A program made the translations under genes and the position numbers. Positions 1 to 5,474 of a stretch of DNA of 5,474 nt are shown here, piece by piece (the first letter of the stretch is position 1; every line of letters begins with the position of its first letter). This DNA comes from a virus (Duplodnaviria > Heunggongvirae > Uroviricota > Caudoviricetes). The notes under the pieces were generated by a model. It saw nothing but the letters and a program-made list of their open reading frames with translations. It ran no database searches and was not told where the DNA came from. Location of the stretch: positions 1 through 5,474 of the IMG/VR virus record IMGVR_UViG_2684622670_000024; one strand, 5' to 3'.

Positions 1-417
1 GATTCACATAACCCACTGATTTTTGTCAGTTAAAAACAAATTTACACGTAGCAATTTATCAAAAGTGATACACCGAATGATATACGGATCGATACACAGC
101 GCCACAATCTCAAAAAAGCACCAGCACAATTAGAAGGCCGCGAGTATACAACATCAGAAACAGGAGAGGGCAAAGCACGTAATAATTTTCGTTTTTCACA
201 AACGCAAAAATTTGGCGAGGCTGGCGGTCCCGGCAACATGAAGCTACATAGATTTTGATCCCCTGCATGGTGATGATGCCCATACAGGGCTATTTCATTT
301 CAACGGAACCAGTATGACGAACATGATCGCACCTTCTCCCGAAAACGGTGCGACCTCCATAGAGGAAATGCCTATTCAGATCCCCGGTGATTTTCACCAT
401 TCAGAATCTGGAGGGTG

Positions 418-433
418 AGTTTTCCAGTTTTCC
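418..433 (+). repeat. Tandem direct repeat AGTTTTCC x2, with related GTTTYC motifs at 582-589, 728-736 and 793-802
   Basis: AGTTTTCC at 418-425 and 426-433. GGTTTCCG (582-589), GGTTTCCCC (728-736) and GGTTTCTTCC (793-802) each lie beside an IHF-consensus site. Confidence 0.4.
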
Positions 434-453
434 CCAATGGGGGATTCTGGAAC

Positions 454-466
454 AATCAACGGGTTA
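454..466 (+). promoter_or_regulatory. IHF core-consensus match (AATCAACGGGTTA), site D
   Basis: Exact fit to WATCARNNNNTTR. The 13-mer is identical to site B except for the first base; it lacks the upstream CGAAAA tract. Confidence 0.4.
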
Positions 467-587
467 CGCCTTACCAGCAAAAAAGCACATCAACTGTAAC
501 GGAAATCGTTATGGCTGCTGGTGGGCCAAATCATCATTACGGTGATGCAGCTATGTAGACGTTCCGGTCTCCTCAAATCGAGGTTTC

Positions 588-606
588 CGAAAATATCAGT
601 GAGTTA
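588..606 (+). promoter_or_regulatory. IHF core-consensus match with upstream A-tract (CGAAAATATCAGTGAGTTA), site A
   Basis: TATCAGTGAGTTA fits WATCARNNNNTTR (R=G); preceded by the CGAAAA tract shared with sites B and C. Confidence 0.45.
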
Positions 607-628
607 GCGATTAAGCTGGCGAGTAATT

Positions 629-651
629 AAACTACGAAAATTTCGTAGTTT
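629..651. repeat. Perfect 23-bp palindrome AAACTACGAAA-A-TTTCGTAGTTT (11-1-11)
   Basis: Arms 629-639 and 641-651 are exact reverse complements. AT-rich; shares CGAAAAT with the IHF-site flank. Looks like a dimeric-protein operator rather than a terminator (no GC-rich stem or U-tract). Confidence 0.6.
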
Positions 652-653
652 GT

Positions 654-672
654 GACTATCTGAAAGATAGTC
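654..672. repeat. Perfect inverted repeat GACTATC-TGAAA-GATAGTC (7-5-7)
   Basis: Arms 654-660 and 666-672 are exact reverse complements; it lies 2 bp from the 23-bp palindrome. Confidence 0.55.
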
Positions 673-703
673 GGTTGATCCGGCCTCAGCCGTTGGCTGT
701 TCC

Positions 704-722
704 CGAAAATATCAACGGGTTA
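704..722 (+). promoter_or_regulatory. IHF core-consensus match with upstream A-tract (CGAAAATATCAACGGGTTA), site B
   Basis: TATCAACGGGTTA is an exact fit to WATCAANNNNTTR; the A-rich 5' flank resembles high-affinity IHF sites. Flanked by the inverted CCCG...CGGG. Confidence 0.5.
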
Positions 723-757
723 GGCTGGTTTCCCCGATGTTCGCCGCTGGCGAATTT

Positions 758-776
758 CGAAAATATCAACCAGTTA
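758..776 (+). promoter_or_regulatory. IHF core-consensus match with upstream A-tract (CGAAAATATCAACCAGTTA), site C
   Basis: TATCAACCAGTTA is an exact fit; it overlaps the 8-bp palindrome TTTCGAAA (755-762) and the stop codon of the 96-aa ORF. Confidence 0.5.
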
Positions 777-1064
777 CCGCCGTAACCGTTCCGGTTTCTT
801 CCAGTGGTAAGTATTTTTCGCGCTCTCCCTCCGTTGCTGAGAACGGCGACGACATGCCAGCAACTCGAGAACTCTGGTTCGTATGTTGCGCATATCCACG
901 CCGTTAAGCTCGATACCGTCACGGCGCATCACCTCAGCCACTACACGCGCGTAATTTTCGGCTATCACGCTGTCCGGCTGCGTGGCCTGTTCGTCATGCT
1001 GCTGGCTGATTCCGGTAACGCGGCGGATTATTTTTAGTAGTTCGGTTTCGCTCATTCTCGTCAT
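774..1064 (-). CDS. Hypothetical protein, translationally coupled to terL; function unknown
   Basis: 96 aa (MTRMSETELLKIIRRVTGISQQHDEQ...RRRSQQRRESAKNTYHWKKPERLRR). ATG at 1062-1064 overlaps the TerL stop (ATGA). Same strand as the operon, helical-looking body with a strongly basic C-terminal tail. I do not recognise a family. Its stop codon (774-776) coincides with the TTA of an IHF-consensus site. Confidence 0.5.
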   Translation of the reverse strand: MTRMSETELLKIIRRVTGISQQHDEQATQPDSVIAENYARVVAEVMRRDGIELNGVDMRNIRTRVLELLACRRRSQQRRESAKNTYHWKKPERLRR

Positions 1065-2722
1065 ACCCCATCAAACGCCGCAAGCCGCTCTTTGTGGCTG
1101 TCGCTTATATCAAATGCAAATTCCTCATGCTCTGCCTGGAATGTGCCAAACGCCATCAGCGCCGCAACGCTCGGATCTATCTTGTTGGATGATTTTTTCT
1201 TGTTCGGCTTGATATTGGCGTTCGCGTCACTCTGCATCACAACATTACTCATTGACCAGGCCAGCACCGGATCACCACGATGCACAATCACCTTCCGGTT
1301 AACAAAAACTTCGAACGATTTCGCCGCCGGACTGAAACGAAGGTATGTTTGCGGGAACGGCTCCACCTCAAATCCTGCGCCCTGTAGCTGCGTCCTCAGG
1401 TGCGTGGCGTTCCATGTATCGAAGCCCACCAGTCTGATATTGAAATTCTCTGCATCCGCCATGATGTCATCGCGGATACGGTCATAATCAATGCAGTCAC
1501 CCGGTGTTGTGCGTATCCAGCCCGCCTTTGCCCACTGGCGATAGATGGCGCGGTTTTTATTGGCGGGGTTCTGTAGCTGAAATTCCGGCAGATAGTGACG
1601 GGAAACCAGCATAATCTTTTTACCGACCGGAAAGGCATAGCACACGCTGGAAATATCGCTGGTTGATGATAAGTCCAGCCCCGCGTAGCACTCCTGCCCG
1701 TATAAATCCGCCTCCGCGAACGTTCCGGCGCACTCCGCCCATGCACCGTTACCCATCCACGGCGTAGCCCCCTGACACCAGATATTGAATCGCTTGGTGA
1801 GCATTTCCACCCACTGCGACGGAATACCCCGCGCTTTCTGGATGGTTGAGGCCAGTTTTTCACGATCGACGGAAACATCGATATTGGGATTCGCCTTTAT
1901 CCACATCGCCGGATCGTCAACCTCGCTTTCATCATCCAGCTCGTAAATAAGCACGAACATGGATTCGTTCACCTCTTCACCATCCAGTATCTGGCAGCAA
2001 TAGTCGTAGTGTTGTTTACAGGCTGAAACAACGTTGCTCCCCGATGTGGTGATGGCAAATAATAACCCCTCCGGACGCGCCCCCATTCCCAGTTCAAGCG
2101 CGGAATAAACCCCGTTGTCAGGGTGCAGGTGATATTCATCCACAATGGCGAGACTCGGGTTTGTCCCCTCAATGGTTGCCGCTTTTGCTGCCAGTGGCTT
2201 TAACAGGCTGTTGGTTTTCGGGTGTATCACCTTGTGCGCCTGAATATTTACCCGCTTTCGTAACGGTCGGGATAAAAGGCACATCTGACGCGCATCATCA
2301 AACACGATCCGCGCCTGATCACGACTCACGGCGGCGGTGTAAATATCCTGCTGCCCGTGTTCCATAACCAGAAACCAGTTAGCCAGGATAGCGGCGACCG
2401 TGGATTTGGCATTTTTTCGCGGTACTTCAATGAATGCGCTGGTGTATTTGCGCCGTCCGGTGGCCTTAACCTTAAAGCCCAGGATGCAGGCAAAGGCGAA
2501 CTGCTGCCACGGCTCCAGCTCAATGGGGCTACCGCGCATTGCGCCTTTTACGTGCGGACACACCCTGGAAAAGGCAATAAACCGCTCCACGACCTCCGGA
2601 TCGAACGTGTAAAGGGGGTTTTCAAGGTCAGAAAAATACCGTTTAACGGCCTGTTTCAGTCGTTTACAGGCCGTAATTTTGCCGTTTTTTACGCCTTCTG
2701 CGTACTCATGCCAGGCGGTCAA
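1061..2722 (-). CDS. terL: Terminase large subunit (ATPase + nuclease)
   Basis: 553 aa. Deviant Walker A (EVPRKNAKST), Walker B (LAIVDEYH, hydrophobic run + DE), and a C-terminal RNase-H-like nuclease region with acidic residues in GLDLSSTSD, VGFDTWNA and KIDPSVAALMA. The only in-frame start candidate after the upstream stop (TAA 2765-2767) is TTG at 2720-2722, preceded by a strong SD (GAGGAAGAGGA) and lying 17 nt inside the 3' end of terS. Stop TGA 1061-1063 overlaps the ATG of the next ORF. Confidence 0.9.
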   Translation of the reverse strand: MTAWHEYAEGVKNGKITACKRLKQAVKRYFSDLENPLYTFDPEVVERFIAFSRVCPHVKGAMRGSPIELEPWQQFAFACILGFKVKATGRRKYTSAFIEVPRKNAKSTVAAILANWFLVMEHGQQDIYTAAVSRDQARIVFDDARQMCLLSRPLRKRVNIQAHKVIHPKTNSLLKPLAAKAATIEGTNPSLAIVDEYHLHPDNGVYSALELGMGARPEGLLFAITTSGSNVVSACKQHYDYCCQILDGEEVNESMFVLIYELDDESEVDDPAMWIKANPNIDVSVDREKLASTIQKARGIPSQWVEMLTKRFNIWCQGATPWMGNGAWAECAGTFAEADLYGQECYAGLDLSSTSDISSVCYAFPVGKKIMLVSRHYLPEFQLQNPANKNRAIYRQWAKAGWIRTTPGDCIDYDRIRDDIMADAENFNIRLVGFDTWNATHLRTQLQGAGFEVEPFPQTYLRFSPAAKSFEVFVNRKVIVHRGDPVLAWSMSNVVMQSDANANIKPNKKKSSNKIDPSVAALMAFGTFQAEHEEFAFDISDSHKERLAAFDGV

Positions 2723-3062
2723 GCTCGTCCTCTTCCTCTGTTTCCGGTGGATTTCTGCGGCGGCTTACCGGGTCAAAACCCAGCAAAGAAGCCATTTTGA
2801 TCATTATTCTTTCTGCGTCAGCCTTTGCGCTCAGGGCGGGGTTTCTGCTCTCGCTGCCCTGACTGTTAACAATGCTGAACCCGCGCGTCGCAAGGTCTTC
2901 GACGGCTTTGCGGTATATAGAGTAGTTAACGCAATACAGTTCCAGATTGCTCCAGTCGGCGGGGGTAAGGTCTTCCCGCCCGGAAAGCTGGCGCGATTTT
3001 TCCTTCCACTGCCTGACCGCGATTTCATCCAGGTAAGCGGGGGCTTTTGGTGGTCTTGCCAT
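2706..3062 (-). CDS. terS: Terminase small subunit, P27-family-like (start placed at the internal ATG 3060-3062; the six-frame ORF extends to an ATG at 3201-3203)
   Basis: From the internal Met the product is 118 aa beginning MARPPKAPAYLDEIAVRQWKE..., which matches the M-x-(G)RPPK N-terminus and size typical of P27-family small terminases. The 47-aa upstream extension (MFSQSLVRPSEGVGEVFRTKPPLPDTDRLLKFLCTGIFLKIIGRKKN) is not protein-like to my eye, but the ATG at 3201-3203 has a better SD (GAGGT, 6-nt spacing) than the ATG at 3060-3062. Acidic C-terminal tail ...PETEEEDELDRLA. Stop TGA at 2706-2708. Confidence 0.7.
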   Translation of the reverse strand: MARPPKAPAYLDEIAVRQWKEKSRQLSGREDLTPADWSNLELYCVNYSIYRKAVEDLATRGFSIVNSQGSESRNPALSAKADAERIMIKMASLLGFDPVSRRRNPPETEEEDELDRLA

Positions 3063-3350
3063 GTTCTTTTTTCGCCCAATTATTTTCAAAAAAATTCCCG
3101 TGCACAAAAATTTGAGGAGGCGGTCGGTGTCCGGCAGGGGCGGTTTCGTCCTGAAAACCTCCCCCACCCCCTCTGACGGCCTCACCAGCGATTGCGAAAA
3201 CATTCCATGACCTCGCGGTCACGGTCGGTTAATCGCTTCGCTGTGGTGCGTTCTGTGCGCTCTGTCCTGTTGGCTTTGTGCCCTGTCTCCTGTGTCTTCC
3301 ATAAGTCACGCTGCCTTATCAGTCCACGTATCAGCCTGTTTTGCTCCTGT
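3063..3350 (-). promoter_or_regulatory. Structured HNH-terS intergenic region; candidate cos / terminase-recognition region
   Basis: About 288 bp non-coding if terS starts at 3062. Contains a CTGT-rich block (eight CTGT in 3241-3350; ACAG(G) on the coding strand), an imperfect dyad GACC-TCGC-GGTC (3209-3220) flanked by inverted AGCGATT (3187-3193) / AATCGCT (3231-3237), and a C5-A-C5 tract (3161-3171). In HK97-like phages cos lies between the HNH gene and terS. Confidence 0.4.
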
Positions 3351-3791
3351 TCAGTCATCATCGCCATACATCCAGTCGTTACGATGTGCCGCCCGTTCTT
3401 CCTGCTCGCGATACATGCCCGCCTTACGGTTCGCTTTCGTGGCTGGATCTTCCCGTGTCGTCTTACGGTTGTGGCACGTCTGGCACAATGCCTGGTGGTT
3501 CCACTCAGGCCAGAAGAGAACATCACCGCCGCCATTGATGGGAATGATGTGATCCACCACAAGAGCTGGCGTATAAATACCCTTAGCCAGACAACGCACG
3601 CATAACGGATTTTTTTTCAGGTACAGGGCGCGGTATTTGTCCCACAGTCGGGAATACCCACGTGCGCGGCGGTGTCCCCGTCTGGCATCCTCTGCACGCC
3701 ATGCAGCCCGCCTGTGCTCTTCACACTTGCCGGACTTCACGCGCTTATTACAGCCCGGCTCAGTGCATCGCCTTAATGGTTGCCATGGCAT
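3351..3791 (-). CDS. HNH endonuclease, terminase-associated type
   Basis: 146 aa; N-terminal Cys cluster (RCTEPGCNKRV...GKCEEH) and a classic HNH core (VVDHIIPINGGGD ... WNHQALCQTCHNRKT). It sits immediately upstream of the small terminase, the arrangement known for HNH proteins that assist cos-cleaving terminases in HK97-like phages. Possible SD GGGGGTG about 7 nt upstream of the ATG. Confidence 0.88.
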   Translation of the reverse strand: MPWQPLRRCTEPGCNKRVKSGKCEEHRRAAWRAEDARRGHRRARGYSRLWDKYRALYLKKNPLCVRCLAKGIYTPALVVDHIIPINGGGDVLFWPEWNHQALCQTCHNRKTTREDPATKANRKAGMYREQEERAAHRNDWMYGDDD

Positions 3792-4087
3792 CAGTACACC
3801 CCCACATCACGATAAACCGACCAGAGCGCGGAAATCGTCAGGGGAATTTCTTTTGTATCGGTATCGCCAAGCGTTGTCCGGTACTCGTACAGTTGCGAGA
3901 TATACATCAGGCAACCAATTTTTATTGCAGGGGTAAATTCCAGGCCGTCATCAAAACGCCTGCCAATATGCTTCTGGCATACCTCCAGCGCCGCGCTTAT
4001 GTATGCCTGAATCAGTGTGTCTTCTGTGTTACCATCTATGCGGCAGTGAAGTTTGGCCTCTTCCAGGGTTATTTTTTCTGCTGTCAT
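3791..4087 (-). CDS. Phage gp6-like head-tail connector protein
   Basis: 98 aa; N-terminal ...ITLEEAKLHCRIDGNTEDTLIQAYISAALEVCQKHIGR... fits the gp6-like connector pattern (L-E-x-A-K-x-H-x-R-I-D, then D/E-D-x-L-I-x-x-Y-I-x-A-A). ATG 4085-4087 overlaps the upstream stop; stop TGA 3791-3793 shares one base with the HNH ATG (3789-3791; TGATG junction on the coding strand). Confidence 0.78.
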   Translation of the reverse strand: MTAEKITLEEAKLHCRIDGNTEDTLIQAYISAALEVCQKHIGRRFDDGLEFTPAIKIGCLMYISQLYEYRTTLGDTDTKEIPLTISALWSVYRDVGVY

Positions 4088-4422
4088 TTTTCTGTACCCA
4101 CCTTTGCCAGAATTTCCAGCCGGGTTCTTTTCGCATCAGGTAAGGGGATCCCGATGATATTAAGCGTGCTCCCGGCAAAAGCGCCGGTAAGCACTTTCAG
4201 GCGACTGGCGGCGGATATGTCGCCACGATAGCGAACCCATACCCGAATCGTTGCAGGTGCGGTTTCTGCGCCTGCGGTCAGCAATTCCCGTCCGCTGATC
4301 CCCTTGACCTCTGCCCAGATGGTTTCCCCTTCCGTCCATATCTGCTGGATCGCACCTGACGGCAGGCGCTGTGTGGTAAATGTCATAATCGTCACCCGGT
4401 CCCGCATCTTTCCGGCTATCAT
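4084..4422 (-). CDS. Phage head-closure / head-tail adaptor protein (head-tail joining family)
   Basis: 112 aa; N-terminal MxxGKMRDRVTI... is the signature opening of head-tail joining/head-closure proteins as I recall them. ATG at 4420-4422 overlaps the portal stop (ATGA arrangement); its own stop TGA at 4084-4086 overlaps the next ATG (4085-4087). Confidence 0.75.
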   Translation of the reverse strand: MIAGKMRDRVTIMTFTTQRLPSGAIQQIWTEGETIWAEVKGISGRELLTAGAETAPATIRVWVRYRGDISAASRLKVLTGAFAGSTLNIIGIPLPDAKRTRLEILAKVGTEK

Positions 4423-5474
4423 TCGTCACCGCCCTTACTGTTCTTGCTGATTGTCACTTCCTGCTTCCATGCCTGGCTGAACTCGTCACCACCTTCACGC
4501 GGCGGCATCCCCTCACGCTCACGGGCTTCGTTCGGATTCATGATCCCGTTCTTAATCCCTTTCTCATACGTGGCGTAACGTTCGGTAGGGGTGGCGCGCA
4601 GTAAATCGGCTGAATCAAACTCAACCAGATAACGGGTACCAGGTACGGGAGAAGCCATCAGCAAAGCAGCCTTGATTTGCTGTTCGAAGTTCGCCAGCCA
4701 CGGGCGCATTGTCATGGTCAGAAACGCGCGGCTTGCCTCACTGAAATTGCTGTAGGTGCTGTTGCTGTATTCCTGAAGAAAAATCGGCGACACGTTGAAC
4801 ATACGAGCAATGTCTTCAATGGAGAAGCGACGGGAGGCCAGCCATTCCGCATCCTGGTTACTCATCCCCAGTTGCTTGTAATCCATGCCCCCTTCAAGGA
4901 TTGGCGTTTTTCCGGCATTTTTCGCCCCCTTATAGCGTTCCAGAGCATCTAATGCCTGTTTACCTTTCACGCCGTCCAGCCATTCGCCTGACGTGATAAT
5001 CCCTGCCGCCATCATGCCATCTTTCATAATGCTGGCTCCGTGACGCTGTTGAGCAAGGCCAAGCCCAAGTGCCTCACGGCAAATCGTGACAGGGGAGCGC
5101 CCCAGAAAGCCATCATCCGAGGCATAGCGGAGATGCAGAACTTCTTCCTGTAAATACGTGCGCACCGTTCCTGTATAGGGTTCGGTGATGGTATAGCGGT
5201 ATTTGTGTGCGCCTGTGCGTTCCGGTACAACACAACCCGGTGCATAAGGATGAAGTGATTTTGGCTGACCGTCCCGCCCCCACTCAATAACCGCATAGGC
5301 GTTACCGTTCAGCAGGCAGTGACGCATCATTGTGCGTTTAAACTGGTAAGGTGTCTGGCATGAATTTGGCTGCTCATTCAGCAGAATATCTACCGGGTGA
5401 CTGTCCAGCCATTCCCGCGCCTCCCTGCCCTTGTCATTACGTACCAGATACAGATAACACGGCATCGTGGCCAC
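4419..5474 (-). CDS. Phage portal protein (HK97-family-like), 5'-partial; the ORF runs off the right edge of the window, so the true N-terminus is not in view
   Basis: 351 aa visible. Central and C-terminal segments (e.g. ...DAEWLASRRFSIEDIARMFNVSPIFLQEYSNSTYSNFSEASRAFLTMTMRPWLANFEQQI... and ...RYLVEFDSADLLRATPTERYATYEKGIKNGIMNPNEAREREGMPP...) match what I recall of the conserved core and C-terminal region of HK97-type portal proteins. Stop TGA at 4419-4421 overlaps the next gene's ATG (4420-4422). The first codon in the window is GTG, which is not the real start. Confidence 0.82.
   Translation of the reverse strand: MATMPCYLYLVRNDKGREAREWLDSHPVDILLNEQPNSCQTPYQFKRTMMRHCLLNGNAYAVIEWGRDGQPKSLHPYAPGCVVPERTGAHKYRYTITEPYTGTVRTYLQEEVLHLRYASDDGFLGRSPVTICREALGLGLAQQRHGASIMKDGMMAAGIITSGEWLDGVKGKQALDALERYKGAKNAGKTPILEGGMDYKQLGMSNQDAEWLASRRFSIEDIARMFNVSPIFLQEYSNSTYSNFSEASRAFLTMTMRPWLANFEQQIKAALLMASPVPGTRYLVEFDSADLLRATPTERYATYEKGIKNGIMNPNEAREREGMPPREGGDEFSQAWKQEVTISKNSKGGDE

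Follow-up and report, generated by a model that had tools for sequence, protein, structure and literature searches.

Capsid-forming PICIs (cf-PICIs) are satellites with EcCIEDL933 as their prototype, and it is for this island and a few others only that helper-phage induction and transfer by means of helper tails have been established experimentally (10.1101/2022.09.08.507074). The region that follows the packaging operon of cf-PICIs is described as variable and is expected to encode immune systems (10.1101/2025.02.11.637232), and cf-PICIs that are inserted inside a prophage terL have been described as 'helper-embedded' satellites (10.1101/2022.07.18.500453). For EcCICFT073 two cos sites are reported, of which cos1 is required and cos2 dispensable (PMC6092414, PMC6739421).

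The stretch of DNA analysed here (5,474 nucleotides, referred to as the window) is the right end of an EcCIEDL933-like cf-PICI of E. coli. All genes of the window lie on the minus strand. They encode the portal (4419-5474, truncated by the window edge), a head closure protein (4084-4422), a gp6-like head-tail connector (3791-4087), an HNH endonuclease (3351-3791), a P27-family small terminase (terS, 2706-3203) and the large terminase (terL, 1061-2722), the last of which matches the Pfam families TerL_ATPase (4.8e-26) and TerL_nuclease (3.3e-52) and is the cistron upstream of the open reading frame (ORF) studied here. Islands with 96-98% identity are present among complete E. coli genomes (megablast). 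Ahead of the packaging block these related islands carry genes for a major capsid protein, a prohead protease, ProQ/FinO, SSB and a RepA-type helicase, and in addition an Icd-like gene, a helix-turn-helix regulator and a tyrosine integrase; an AlpA-type helix-turn-helix gene adjoins int, host genes lie on both sides, and tail genes are absent. EcCIEDL933 has the same gene order, including a homologue of the ORF (10.1101/2022.09.08.507074). When the portal-to-TerL part is read from the window and the remaining genes from the 96-98% identical islands, the element has its own capsid, protease, portal, connector, closure protein, HNH endonuclease, TerS and TerL. It further comprises int, genes for replication and one for an AlpA-type regulator, while tail genes are missing. 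By this gene content, the window element is a capsid-forming PICI.

In the related island L001, which occupies the same site as the window island, the element is bracketed by the direct repeat TCTACA(A/G)TATGTTTCAT, which contains the start codon of hpt. Because this flanking repeat marks the att core, position 1 of the window is the first base of the island, and window 1-773 is island DNA extending from the att core to the ORF. The copies of the att core (window 1-30; L001 11984-12010 and 27287-27313) span the hpt start codon and the first five codons, so that the insertion point of the island is exactly the 5' end of hpt. Window 1-773 takes the place of the native promoter region of hpt, which is co-directional with the island gene row. 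Candidate arm sites lie by the att core, in the form of another match to the IHF consensus (9-21, minus strand) and GATACAC/GATATAC repeats (about 67-100). In L001, the region 5' of the RepA-type helicase gene (21625-21842) contains three iterons TTTT(G/A)CT(C/A)CCCACTTTTT, 83-85 bp apart, as well as CCCCAC repeats, and is probably the replication origin of the island.

The ORF is present in the list of reading frames at 774-1064 (minus strand) as a 96-residue frame with an ATG start. The plus strand reads TCAT at 1061-1064, and the ATG (1064-1062) overlaps the TGA stop codon of terL (1063-1061), so that the ATGA overlap from which the initial annotation deduced translational coupling does exist. 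The conserved start, however, is the next ATG (1055-1053, Met4), 5 nt past the terL stop. PGAP annotates the relatives from this second ATG, the alignment with the PHROG 1561 profile begins at residue 4 of the 96-residue reading, and ATA replaces the overlapping ATG in two of the 24 islands with the window type of terL, one of these two having GTG at the downstream start. The conserved coding sequence is 774-1055 (93 residues, MSETELL...WKKPERLRR), as defined by the profile match, the PGAP start, the intact frame and dN/dS, whereas the sequence 1056-1064 is an optional 9-nt 5' extension (MTR) from the terL-overlapping ATG, which is not conserved. In other island classes a separate Shine-Dalgarno sequence serves the equivalent Met, which is located 2, 11, 13, 73 or about 255 nt from the preceding gene. 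In the window island, where the ORF is the last cistron after terL, as originally proposed, coupling by reinitiation across the 5-nt gap is plausible; it is not conserved in the family.

That the ORF is a real gene is borne out by a comparison of 89 loci (88 fetched tblastn loci and the window, representing 55 unique DNA sequences and 52 unique proteins), in all of which the full-length frame is uninterrupted. The median pairwise dN/dS across the homologues is 0.23. The pN/pS ratio is 0.57 for residues 1-33, 0.17 for the core (residues 34-72) and 0.037 for the last nine residues, which form the C-terminal tail. The synonymous divergence of the tail (pS 0.36), with synonymous codons varying beneath invariant residues, indicates that this segment is constrained as protein and not merely as DNA. 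Over the whole frame, the variable sites are distributed over sense codon positions 1, 2 and 3 as 36, 36 and 67. Rather than being absent or disrupted beside an intact terL, the ORF directly adjoins it in 492 of the 538 E. coli genomes with a terL 3' end of the window type.

The window also contains an antisense frame of 77 residues (804-1037, plus strand), which had been judged less likely to be real. An explanation in which the ORF is unexpressed, with the antisense frame as the true gene or with conservation stemming from DNA repeats only, could appeal to the antisense frame being open for 81-90 codons in most homologues, and to the resemblance of the ORF 3' end to part of a repeat unit (family D2). 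An open antisense frame is expected, however, where TTA, CTA and TCA codons are rare, as they are in the sense frame. Moreover, the antisense frame has a pN/pS of 1.35, versus 0.29 for the sense frame, the variation is concentrated at sense third positions, and the invariant tail residues show synonymous changes. Pfam and PHROG profile searches gave no family match for the antisense frame, which is not considered a gene, and the explanation as a whole is so improbable that hardly any weight can be attached to it. From these patterns of sequence conservation it is concluded that 774-1055 (minus strand) encodes a real protein of 93 residues.

The protein was initially described as unrecognised. 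This description holds for Pfam and NCBIfam, in which no match was found at E<=0.1 (Pfam scans of 35 relatives were likewise negative), but not for the PHROGs: residues 4-96 match positions 1-93 of the 93-position profile of PHROG 1561, a family of unknown function, with E=6.9e-54 (181 bits), and the C-terminal half weakly matches the short relative PHROG 7271. RefSeq relatives, annotated as 'hypothetical protein', include WP_000133425 from EcCIEDL933, where the gene has the locus tag EDL933_RS08745, and WP_000133395 from E. coli Nissle 1917. Both the PHROG 1561 family and the RefSeq hypotheticals match over the full length and have the same last-gene position, with no difference observed; on sequence grounds, the ORF is a further copy of a catalogued, uncharacterised family and not a new kind of element. 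In a large protein collection the family occupies more than 1000 clusters at 90% identity, and all members among those listed are unnamed or 'hypothetical'. An exhaustive search of representatives at 50% identity gave 39 clusters only, most of which are fragments or fusions, and repeat proteins of 2175 and 318 residues among them were rejected as spurious; the family is therefore narrow, though abundant. A second search, seeded with distant members, adds versions of 62-63 and 86 residues from Klebsiella, Enterobacter, Citrobacter, Pluralibacter and Pectobacterium. One 75-residue protein (P0152) consists of the N-terminal 50 residues of the island TerS joined to the last 25 residues of the ORF, a chimera that implies that a deletion in some genome took away the remainder of terS, the whole of terL and most of the ORF.

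The unit that is conserved across all members comprises approximately residues 34-93, with D54, I58, R59, L66, W85 and K87 as invariant residues and YQW(K/R)KPERLRR as tail consensus. The AlphaFold2 model contains a variable N-terminal helix, a confident helix-loop-helix (residues 28-81) and a basic tail. The basic character of the C-terminus, already pointed out from the sequence, is pronounced: the last 27 residues have a net charge of +9 and the pI of the whole protein is 10.5. The tail is also the best-conserved part of the protein, with YxWKKPERLRR as the most constrained segment (near-invariant form Y-x-W-K/R-K-P-x-R-L-R-R). In the window allele, residue 66 of the 93-residue protein is Cys (codon 858-860), where 53 of the 55 unique homologues have Tyr (AYRRR to ACRRR). 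The model may be compared with homeodomain-like three-helix DNA-binding domains, as three helices are predicted, the third is rich in Arg, and a long loop separates it from the second. The best sequence match in the PDB is the atypical homeodomain of HMBOX1 (2cuf/4j19), in which the recognition helix aligns with helix 3; its E-value of 0.07-0.16 is not significant, and no significant PDB match was obtained by sequence (two profiles) or by fold. The AlphaFold2 model yields no fold relatives. The earlier view that no family could be assigned holds insofar as there is no named family. Membership of the TerS/Rpp families (Terminase_4, DUF1441 and related) finds no Pfam or NCBIfam match at E<=0.1 and no match by sequence or fold in the PDB. 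For the excisionases and recombination directionality factors (Xis, TorI and AlpA types) there is no Pfam match either, and the model is all-alpha with no winged helix. PADLOC-DB gave no family at E<=1 for the ORF and two distant relatives. Across Pfam, NCBIfam, PADLOC and the PDB, no significant homology or fold match supports any function.

DNA of the ORF is found in 1588 of 5426 complete E. coli genomes (about 29%; 2040 places), including EDL933 and Nissle 1917, which is about three times as many genomes as contain the terL 3' end (538). In the 89 loci the preceding gene is a TerL of the window type (24 loci), a TerL of the EcCIEDL933 type (12), the 180-residue TerS of Nissle 1917-like islands, which encode a capsid protein, a decoration protein and TerS (34), DUF1441/Rpp (one, with further cases in the search of E. 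coli genomes), or another gene or none within range (18). A specific partnership with the TerL type of the window, for which co-occurrence had been suggested as a check, does not hold, as the ORF also follows a second TerL type, TerS, Rpp/DUF1441 and other genes, sometimes at a distance of 255 nt; in the Rpp-type islands it starts 2 nt past rpp. It is the last gene in the EcCIEDL933, Rpp-type, Nissle-type, Citrobacter and Klebsiella islands. The Klebsiella cf-PICIs have two genes between terL and the 63-residue homologue, and this homologue is still the last gene, followed by a strong terminator and the host gene fis. In several enterobacterial PICI classes, in short, the rightward gene row ends with the ORF. 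The two extra Klebsiella genes are found at 5026-5993 in L091-L093; one encodes a 206-residue protein whose weak match to the lambda tail assembly protein I narrowly misses the Pfam cut-off (E=7.8e-5), which is surprising for a satellite that is said to borrow helper tails.

The alleles of the ORF are distributed independently of terL. TerL proteins that are at least 98.7% identical precede ORFs with only 80-84% identity to that of the window, and alleles with 90-92% identity to the window ORF are located behind TerS of the Nissle type. Megablast breakpoints at 1053 and 772 coincide with both ends of the gene, which, together with the mismatch between ORF alleles and terL, indicates that the gene is exchanged as a module of its own. 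A tblastn search of 50,697 phage records gave no match except a partial, unannotated one in a Klebsiella phage record, which is located between TerL and an integrase and looks like a satellite end. When one genome per species was scanned, the sole locus was in Shigella flexneri. In about 9% of the E. coli genomes with the window type of terL, the ORF does not adjoin terL. Two such exceptions that lack the ORF were examined (L003 and L096); both have intact packaging genes, in a module nearly identical to that of the window type, and are inserted inside a prophage terL. As these helper-embedded cf-PICIs do without it, the ORF is dispensable for maintaining a complete packaging module. Directly 3' of terL, the two islands contain repeats TTGCGGGTTAT (L003 2754-4008; L096 4140-4670), which are likely integrase arm sites; in L005 the TTGCGGGTTAT arm repeats are located after the ORF.

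In 33 of the 89 loci, all of them non-cf PICIs, an inverted lambda-type cosN (GGGCGGCGACCT) separates the TerS-like gene from the ORF homologue, 64-66 nt before the start of the latter (for example, L008 5923-5938). A second copy, in direct orientation, lies upstream of the TerS-like gene. The inverted and direct copies probably correspond to cos2 and cos1 of EcCICFT073, respectively. A lambda-type cosN downstream of the ORF was also considered and was rejected, the site being found upstream instead and in non-cf PICIs only. With cosN upstream in the non-cf PICIs, the ORF is, in all E. coli classes, the immediate neighbour of the determinants for terminase and cos.

The present ORF goes unmentioned in the mutational analysis published for the EcCIEDL933 packaging module. 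A cf-PICI preprint states that mutating 'each gene of the packaging module' abolished transfer, with the sole exception of 'hypothetical gene 1792', for which a severe reduction is reported. Identity of gene 1792 with the ORF was considered and rejected: with RefSeq locus tags spaced by five, and with the capsid gene numbered 1786 in a later preprint, locus-tag arithmetic makes the ORF gene 1795. By the same arithmetic, gene 1792 is probably the small ORF between the HNH and terS genes (window 3182-3367). This frame (minus strand, 61 residues) is annotated by PGAP in relatives; it overlaps the end of the HNH gene and lies upstream of terS, likely in the cos region. Residues 1-41 of a long, 165-residue reading of terS match PHROG 32378, which makes the gene starts in 3062-3367 ambiguous. 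The number 1795 was not found in the texts of the PICI literature searched, literature searches with the accessions, the PHROG number, the tail peptide and PICI plus IHF gave nothing relevant, and no paper naming the family was found.

Tentatively, and with low confidence, the ORF protein is proposed to be a small nucleic-acid-binding accessory protein of the packaging or transfer stage of the satellite. The nucleic-acid-binding part of this proposal draws on the predicted basicity of the protein (pI 10.5, and +9 in the last 27 residues), and the packaging part on the position beside TerL, TerS or Rpp and on the cosN 65 nt upstream in 33 of 89 loci. The protein would be made together with the terminase genes upon helper-phage induction of the island, in the window island by reinitiation 5 nt past the terL stop, and would act at the packaging or transfer stage on DNA at the cos-proximal right end, with the Arg-rich third helix and the tail contacting the nucleic acid. 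Its role would be accessory and not essential, because helper-embedded cf-PICIs with a complete packaging module lack the gene.

Against a role in nucleic-acid binding, the basic tail could equally bind a protein partner. The tail might dock on part of the terminase, portal or capsid, whether of the helper or the satellite, and in this way interfere with helper packaging or favour packaging of the satellite. This takes up the initial suggestion, itself speculative, of a packaging-redirecting or interference factor. Such a mode of action would liken the protein to SaPI Ppi and PICI Rpp (DUF1441), which are small satellite proteins that redirect or block helper packaging, and to small helical scaffold-type proteins, whose C-terminal tails bind the capsid protein. 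The ORF protein is likewise small and encoded beside terminase and cos determinants, with constant adjacency to Rpp, TerS or TerL genes and cos; its tail is the most constrained segment, its core is a helical hairpin and the family is restricted to satellites. Unlike Rpp and Ppi, however, it is found in cf-PICIs as well, whose packaging relies on a terminase of their own, and it shows no sequence or fold similarity to these proteins, to Rpp/DUF1441 and TerS families at large or to any PDB chain. The same protein (80-94% identity) is found in islands with three unrelated packaging strategies, so that there is no obvious common partner on the satellite side. The weak ribosome-binding site and the last place in the gene row of the window island are, moreover, ill-suited to a protein required in many copies. 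Docking on a protein partner is therefore regarded as unlikely, if still worth considering.

Support for DNA as the partner of the proposed accessory protein may come from the region downstream of the gene. As noted initially, the ORF ends inside an IHF-site repeat: the stop codon TAA (776-774) forms the 'TTA' of the IHF-consensus match TATCAACCAGTTA at 764-776. The window contains five matches to the IHF consensus WATCARNNNNTTR versus 0.32 expected, and none of 200 shuffles reaches five. Four of the five belong to 45-nt direct repeats (423-467, 563-607, 679-723 and 733-777), which by virtue of their match to the consensus and enrichment over chance are candidate IHF sites. The first unit (733-777), which overlaps the stop codon, combines the consensus match TATCAACCAGTTA (764-776, plus strand) with the hairpin TTCGCC-GCT-GGCGAA. 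The second (679-723) contains TATCAACGGGTTA (710-722) and the hairpin CAGCC-GTT-GGCTG, the third (563-607) TATCAGTGAGTTA (594-606) and CCTC-AAATC-GAGG, and the fourth, degenerate unit (423-467) AATCAACGGGTTA (454-466) and CCCC-AAT-GGGG. Two perfect palindromes are located between units 2 and 3 (629-672), at 629-651 (AAACTACGAAA/TTTCGTAGTTT) and 654-672 (GACTATC/GATAGTC). The stop codon itself is held in a hairpin CGGTTACGGCGGTAACTG that is followed by GTTGATATTT (771-788, minus strand) and is terminator-like, with the same site in the Nissle island. It is the sole terminator-like site; the hairpins of the array are not standard operon terminators, because they have no U-tract downstream on the sense strand.

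The predicted RNA fold of 400-800 (minus strand) is more stable than that of shuffled sequences (z = -4.8). On the sense strand each unit reads TAAC-NNN-YTGATATTYYCGR, followed by an extended hairpin with an outer stem from conserved CGR...YCGG. The inner stem occurs in at least six sequences in which complementarity is kept (TTCGCC/GGCGAA, CAGCC/GGCTG, CCTC/GAGG, ACGCA/TGCGT, GCGCA/TGCGC and CCCCC/GGGGG). RNAalifold gave no consensus structure for the ungapped alignment of repeat units, because the hairpin register shifts by one base between subfamilies, and the hairpin covariation thus rests on the folds of individual units and on direct reading. Rfam gave no match in window 1-3400.

Across the loci, 51 distinct units were found, every one on the downstream side of the ORF at offsets of -3 to +460, with no unit upstream. 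At least one unit is present in 33 of 52 distinct flanks and at least two in 25, and in 24 the first unit overlaps the stop codon. The IHF consensus in the same orientation has a density of 1.70/kb in the 700 nt downstream, versus 0.011/kb upstream, a difference of about 160-fold. In two complete islands the motif is almost confined to the region downstream of the ORF, and one repeat unit used as query has matches in only 92 of the 5426 genomes. In Escherichia, a likely target of the proposed nucleic-acid-binding protein would be this orientation-fixed array of IHF-consensus matches and hairpins that begins at the stop codon of its own gene, a suggestion that draws on the occurrence of the motif only downstream and on the first unit lying over the stop in 24 of the 52 flanks. 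The array is missing from 19 of the 52 distinct flanks and from islands without the ORF, and also from the Klebsiella islands, in which an ordinary terminator takes its place; given its absence from those flanks and from Klebsiella, the array would not be a universal DNA target.

The array bears comparison with the RIB/RIP-type BIME elements of E. coli, in which an IHF site is flanked by REP palindromes. Both consist of units that lie outside genes, at operon 3' ends, and join an IHF consensus to a hairpin. Unlike BIMEs, the array has short non-REP hairpins and a single orientation throughout, and its motif is seen only at the right ends of PICIs.

The position of the gene and its repeats next to the att site could also point to a function in recombination or in organising the island end. 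The protein could be a directionality factor similar to TorI of KplE1, the gene for which lies at the far end of the prophage from the integrase, or a regulator or insulator that is placed just upstream of attP-int by circularisation and acts with IHF on the array. Like the recombination directionality factors of the TorI and lambda Xis types, the protein is small, basic and encoded by attR, with repeats and IHF-consensus sites near, and its gene is always the last before the att site. The downstream array has a fixed orientation, and the circularised island would have the order ORF - repeats - attP - int, all co-directional. In contrast to these factors, the protein is predicted to be all-alpha with no winged helix, it has no excisionase or AlpA-type Pfam match, and the islands already have an AlpA-type helix-turn-helix gene adjoining int. 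ORFs with 90% identity occur with integrases of only 47% identity and different att sites, so that there is no co-divergence with the integrase, and the array is common to islands with different integrases and att sites. The repeats are, furthermore, about 420-770 bp from the att core, at a spacing interrupted in one case by a 293-bp insertion and in another by a gene cassette, so that the array cannot be a rigid integrase arm. A recombination or end-organising factor at attR is, on balance, rather improbable.

The insertions that break the spacing are a non-coding insert of 293 bp between repeat units in L001 (about 12723-13015) and, in L004 (4465-5181), a gene for a PerC-family regulator and a 99-residue ORF, likewise between repeat units. 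With cargo located between its units, the array may be a boundary or hotspot for insertions. The ORF itself might be cargo without a role in the satellite life cycle, such as a host- or phage-directed modulator or a defence component. The description of the post-packaging region as variable and expected to encode immune systems (10.1101/2025.02.11.637232) would agree with this, as would the adjacency of PerC to the ORF in some islands and the existence of islands without the ORF. Cargo status is nevertheless quite doubtful, as both position and sequence of the ORF are conserved across PICI classes and genera while its neighbours vary, the gene is under strong purifying selection and PADLOC gave no match.

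Returning to the proposed accessory protein of packaging or transfer, a more far-reaching version would take the ORF and the repeat array as an undescribed terminal module, common to several otherwise unrelated PICI classes; this appears improbable. A new type of small DNA-binding protein would organise the right end of the island with IHF. It might assist in terminating or orienting packaging beside cos, or, in the circular island, shield attP-int from the late operon.

In Enterobacteriaceae, PICIs and cf-PICIs are among the major agents of gene transfer. The ORF family is common to satellite classes with quite different packaging strategies and is unmentioned in the PICI papers searched, and it is this breadth across PICI classes, together with the attached repeat array, that makes the ORF of moderate interest. 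In practical terms, the ORF is a marker for the right boundary of the islands and for their cargo hotspot. That a protein restricted to satellites is conserved and keeps a fixed position suggests that it performs a function these satellites have in common.
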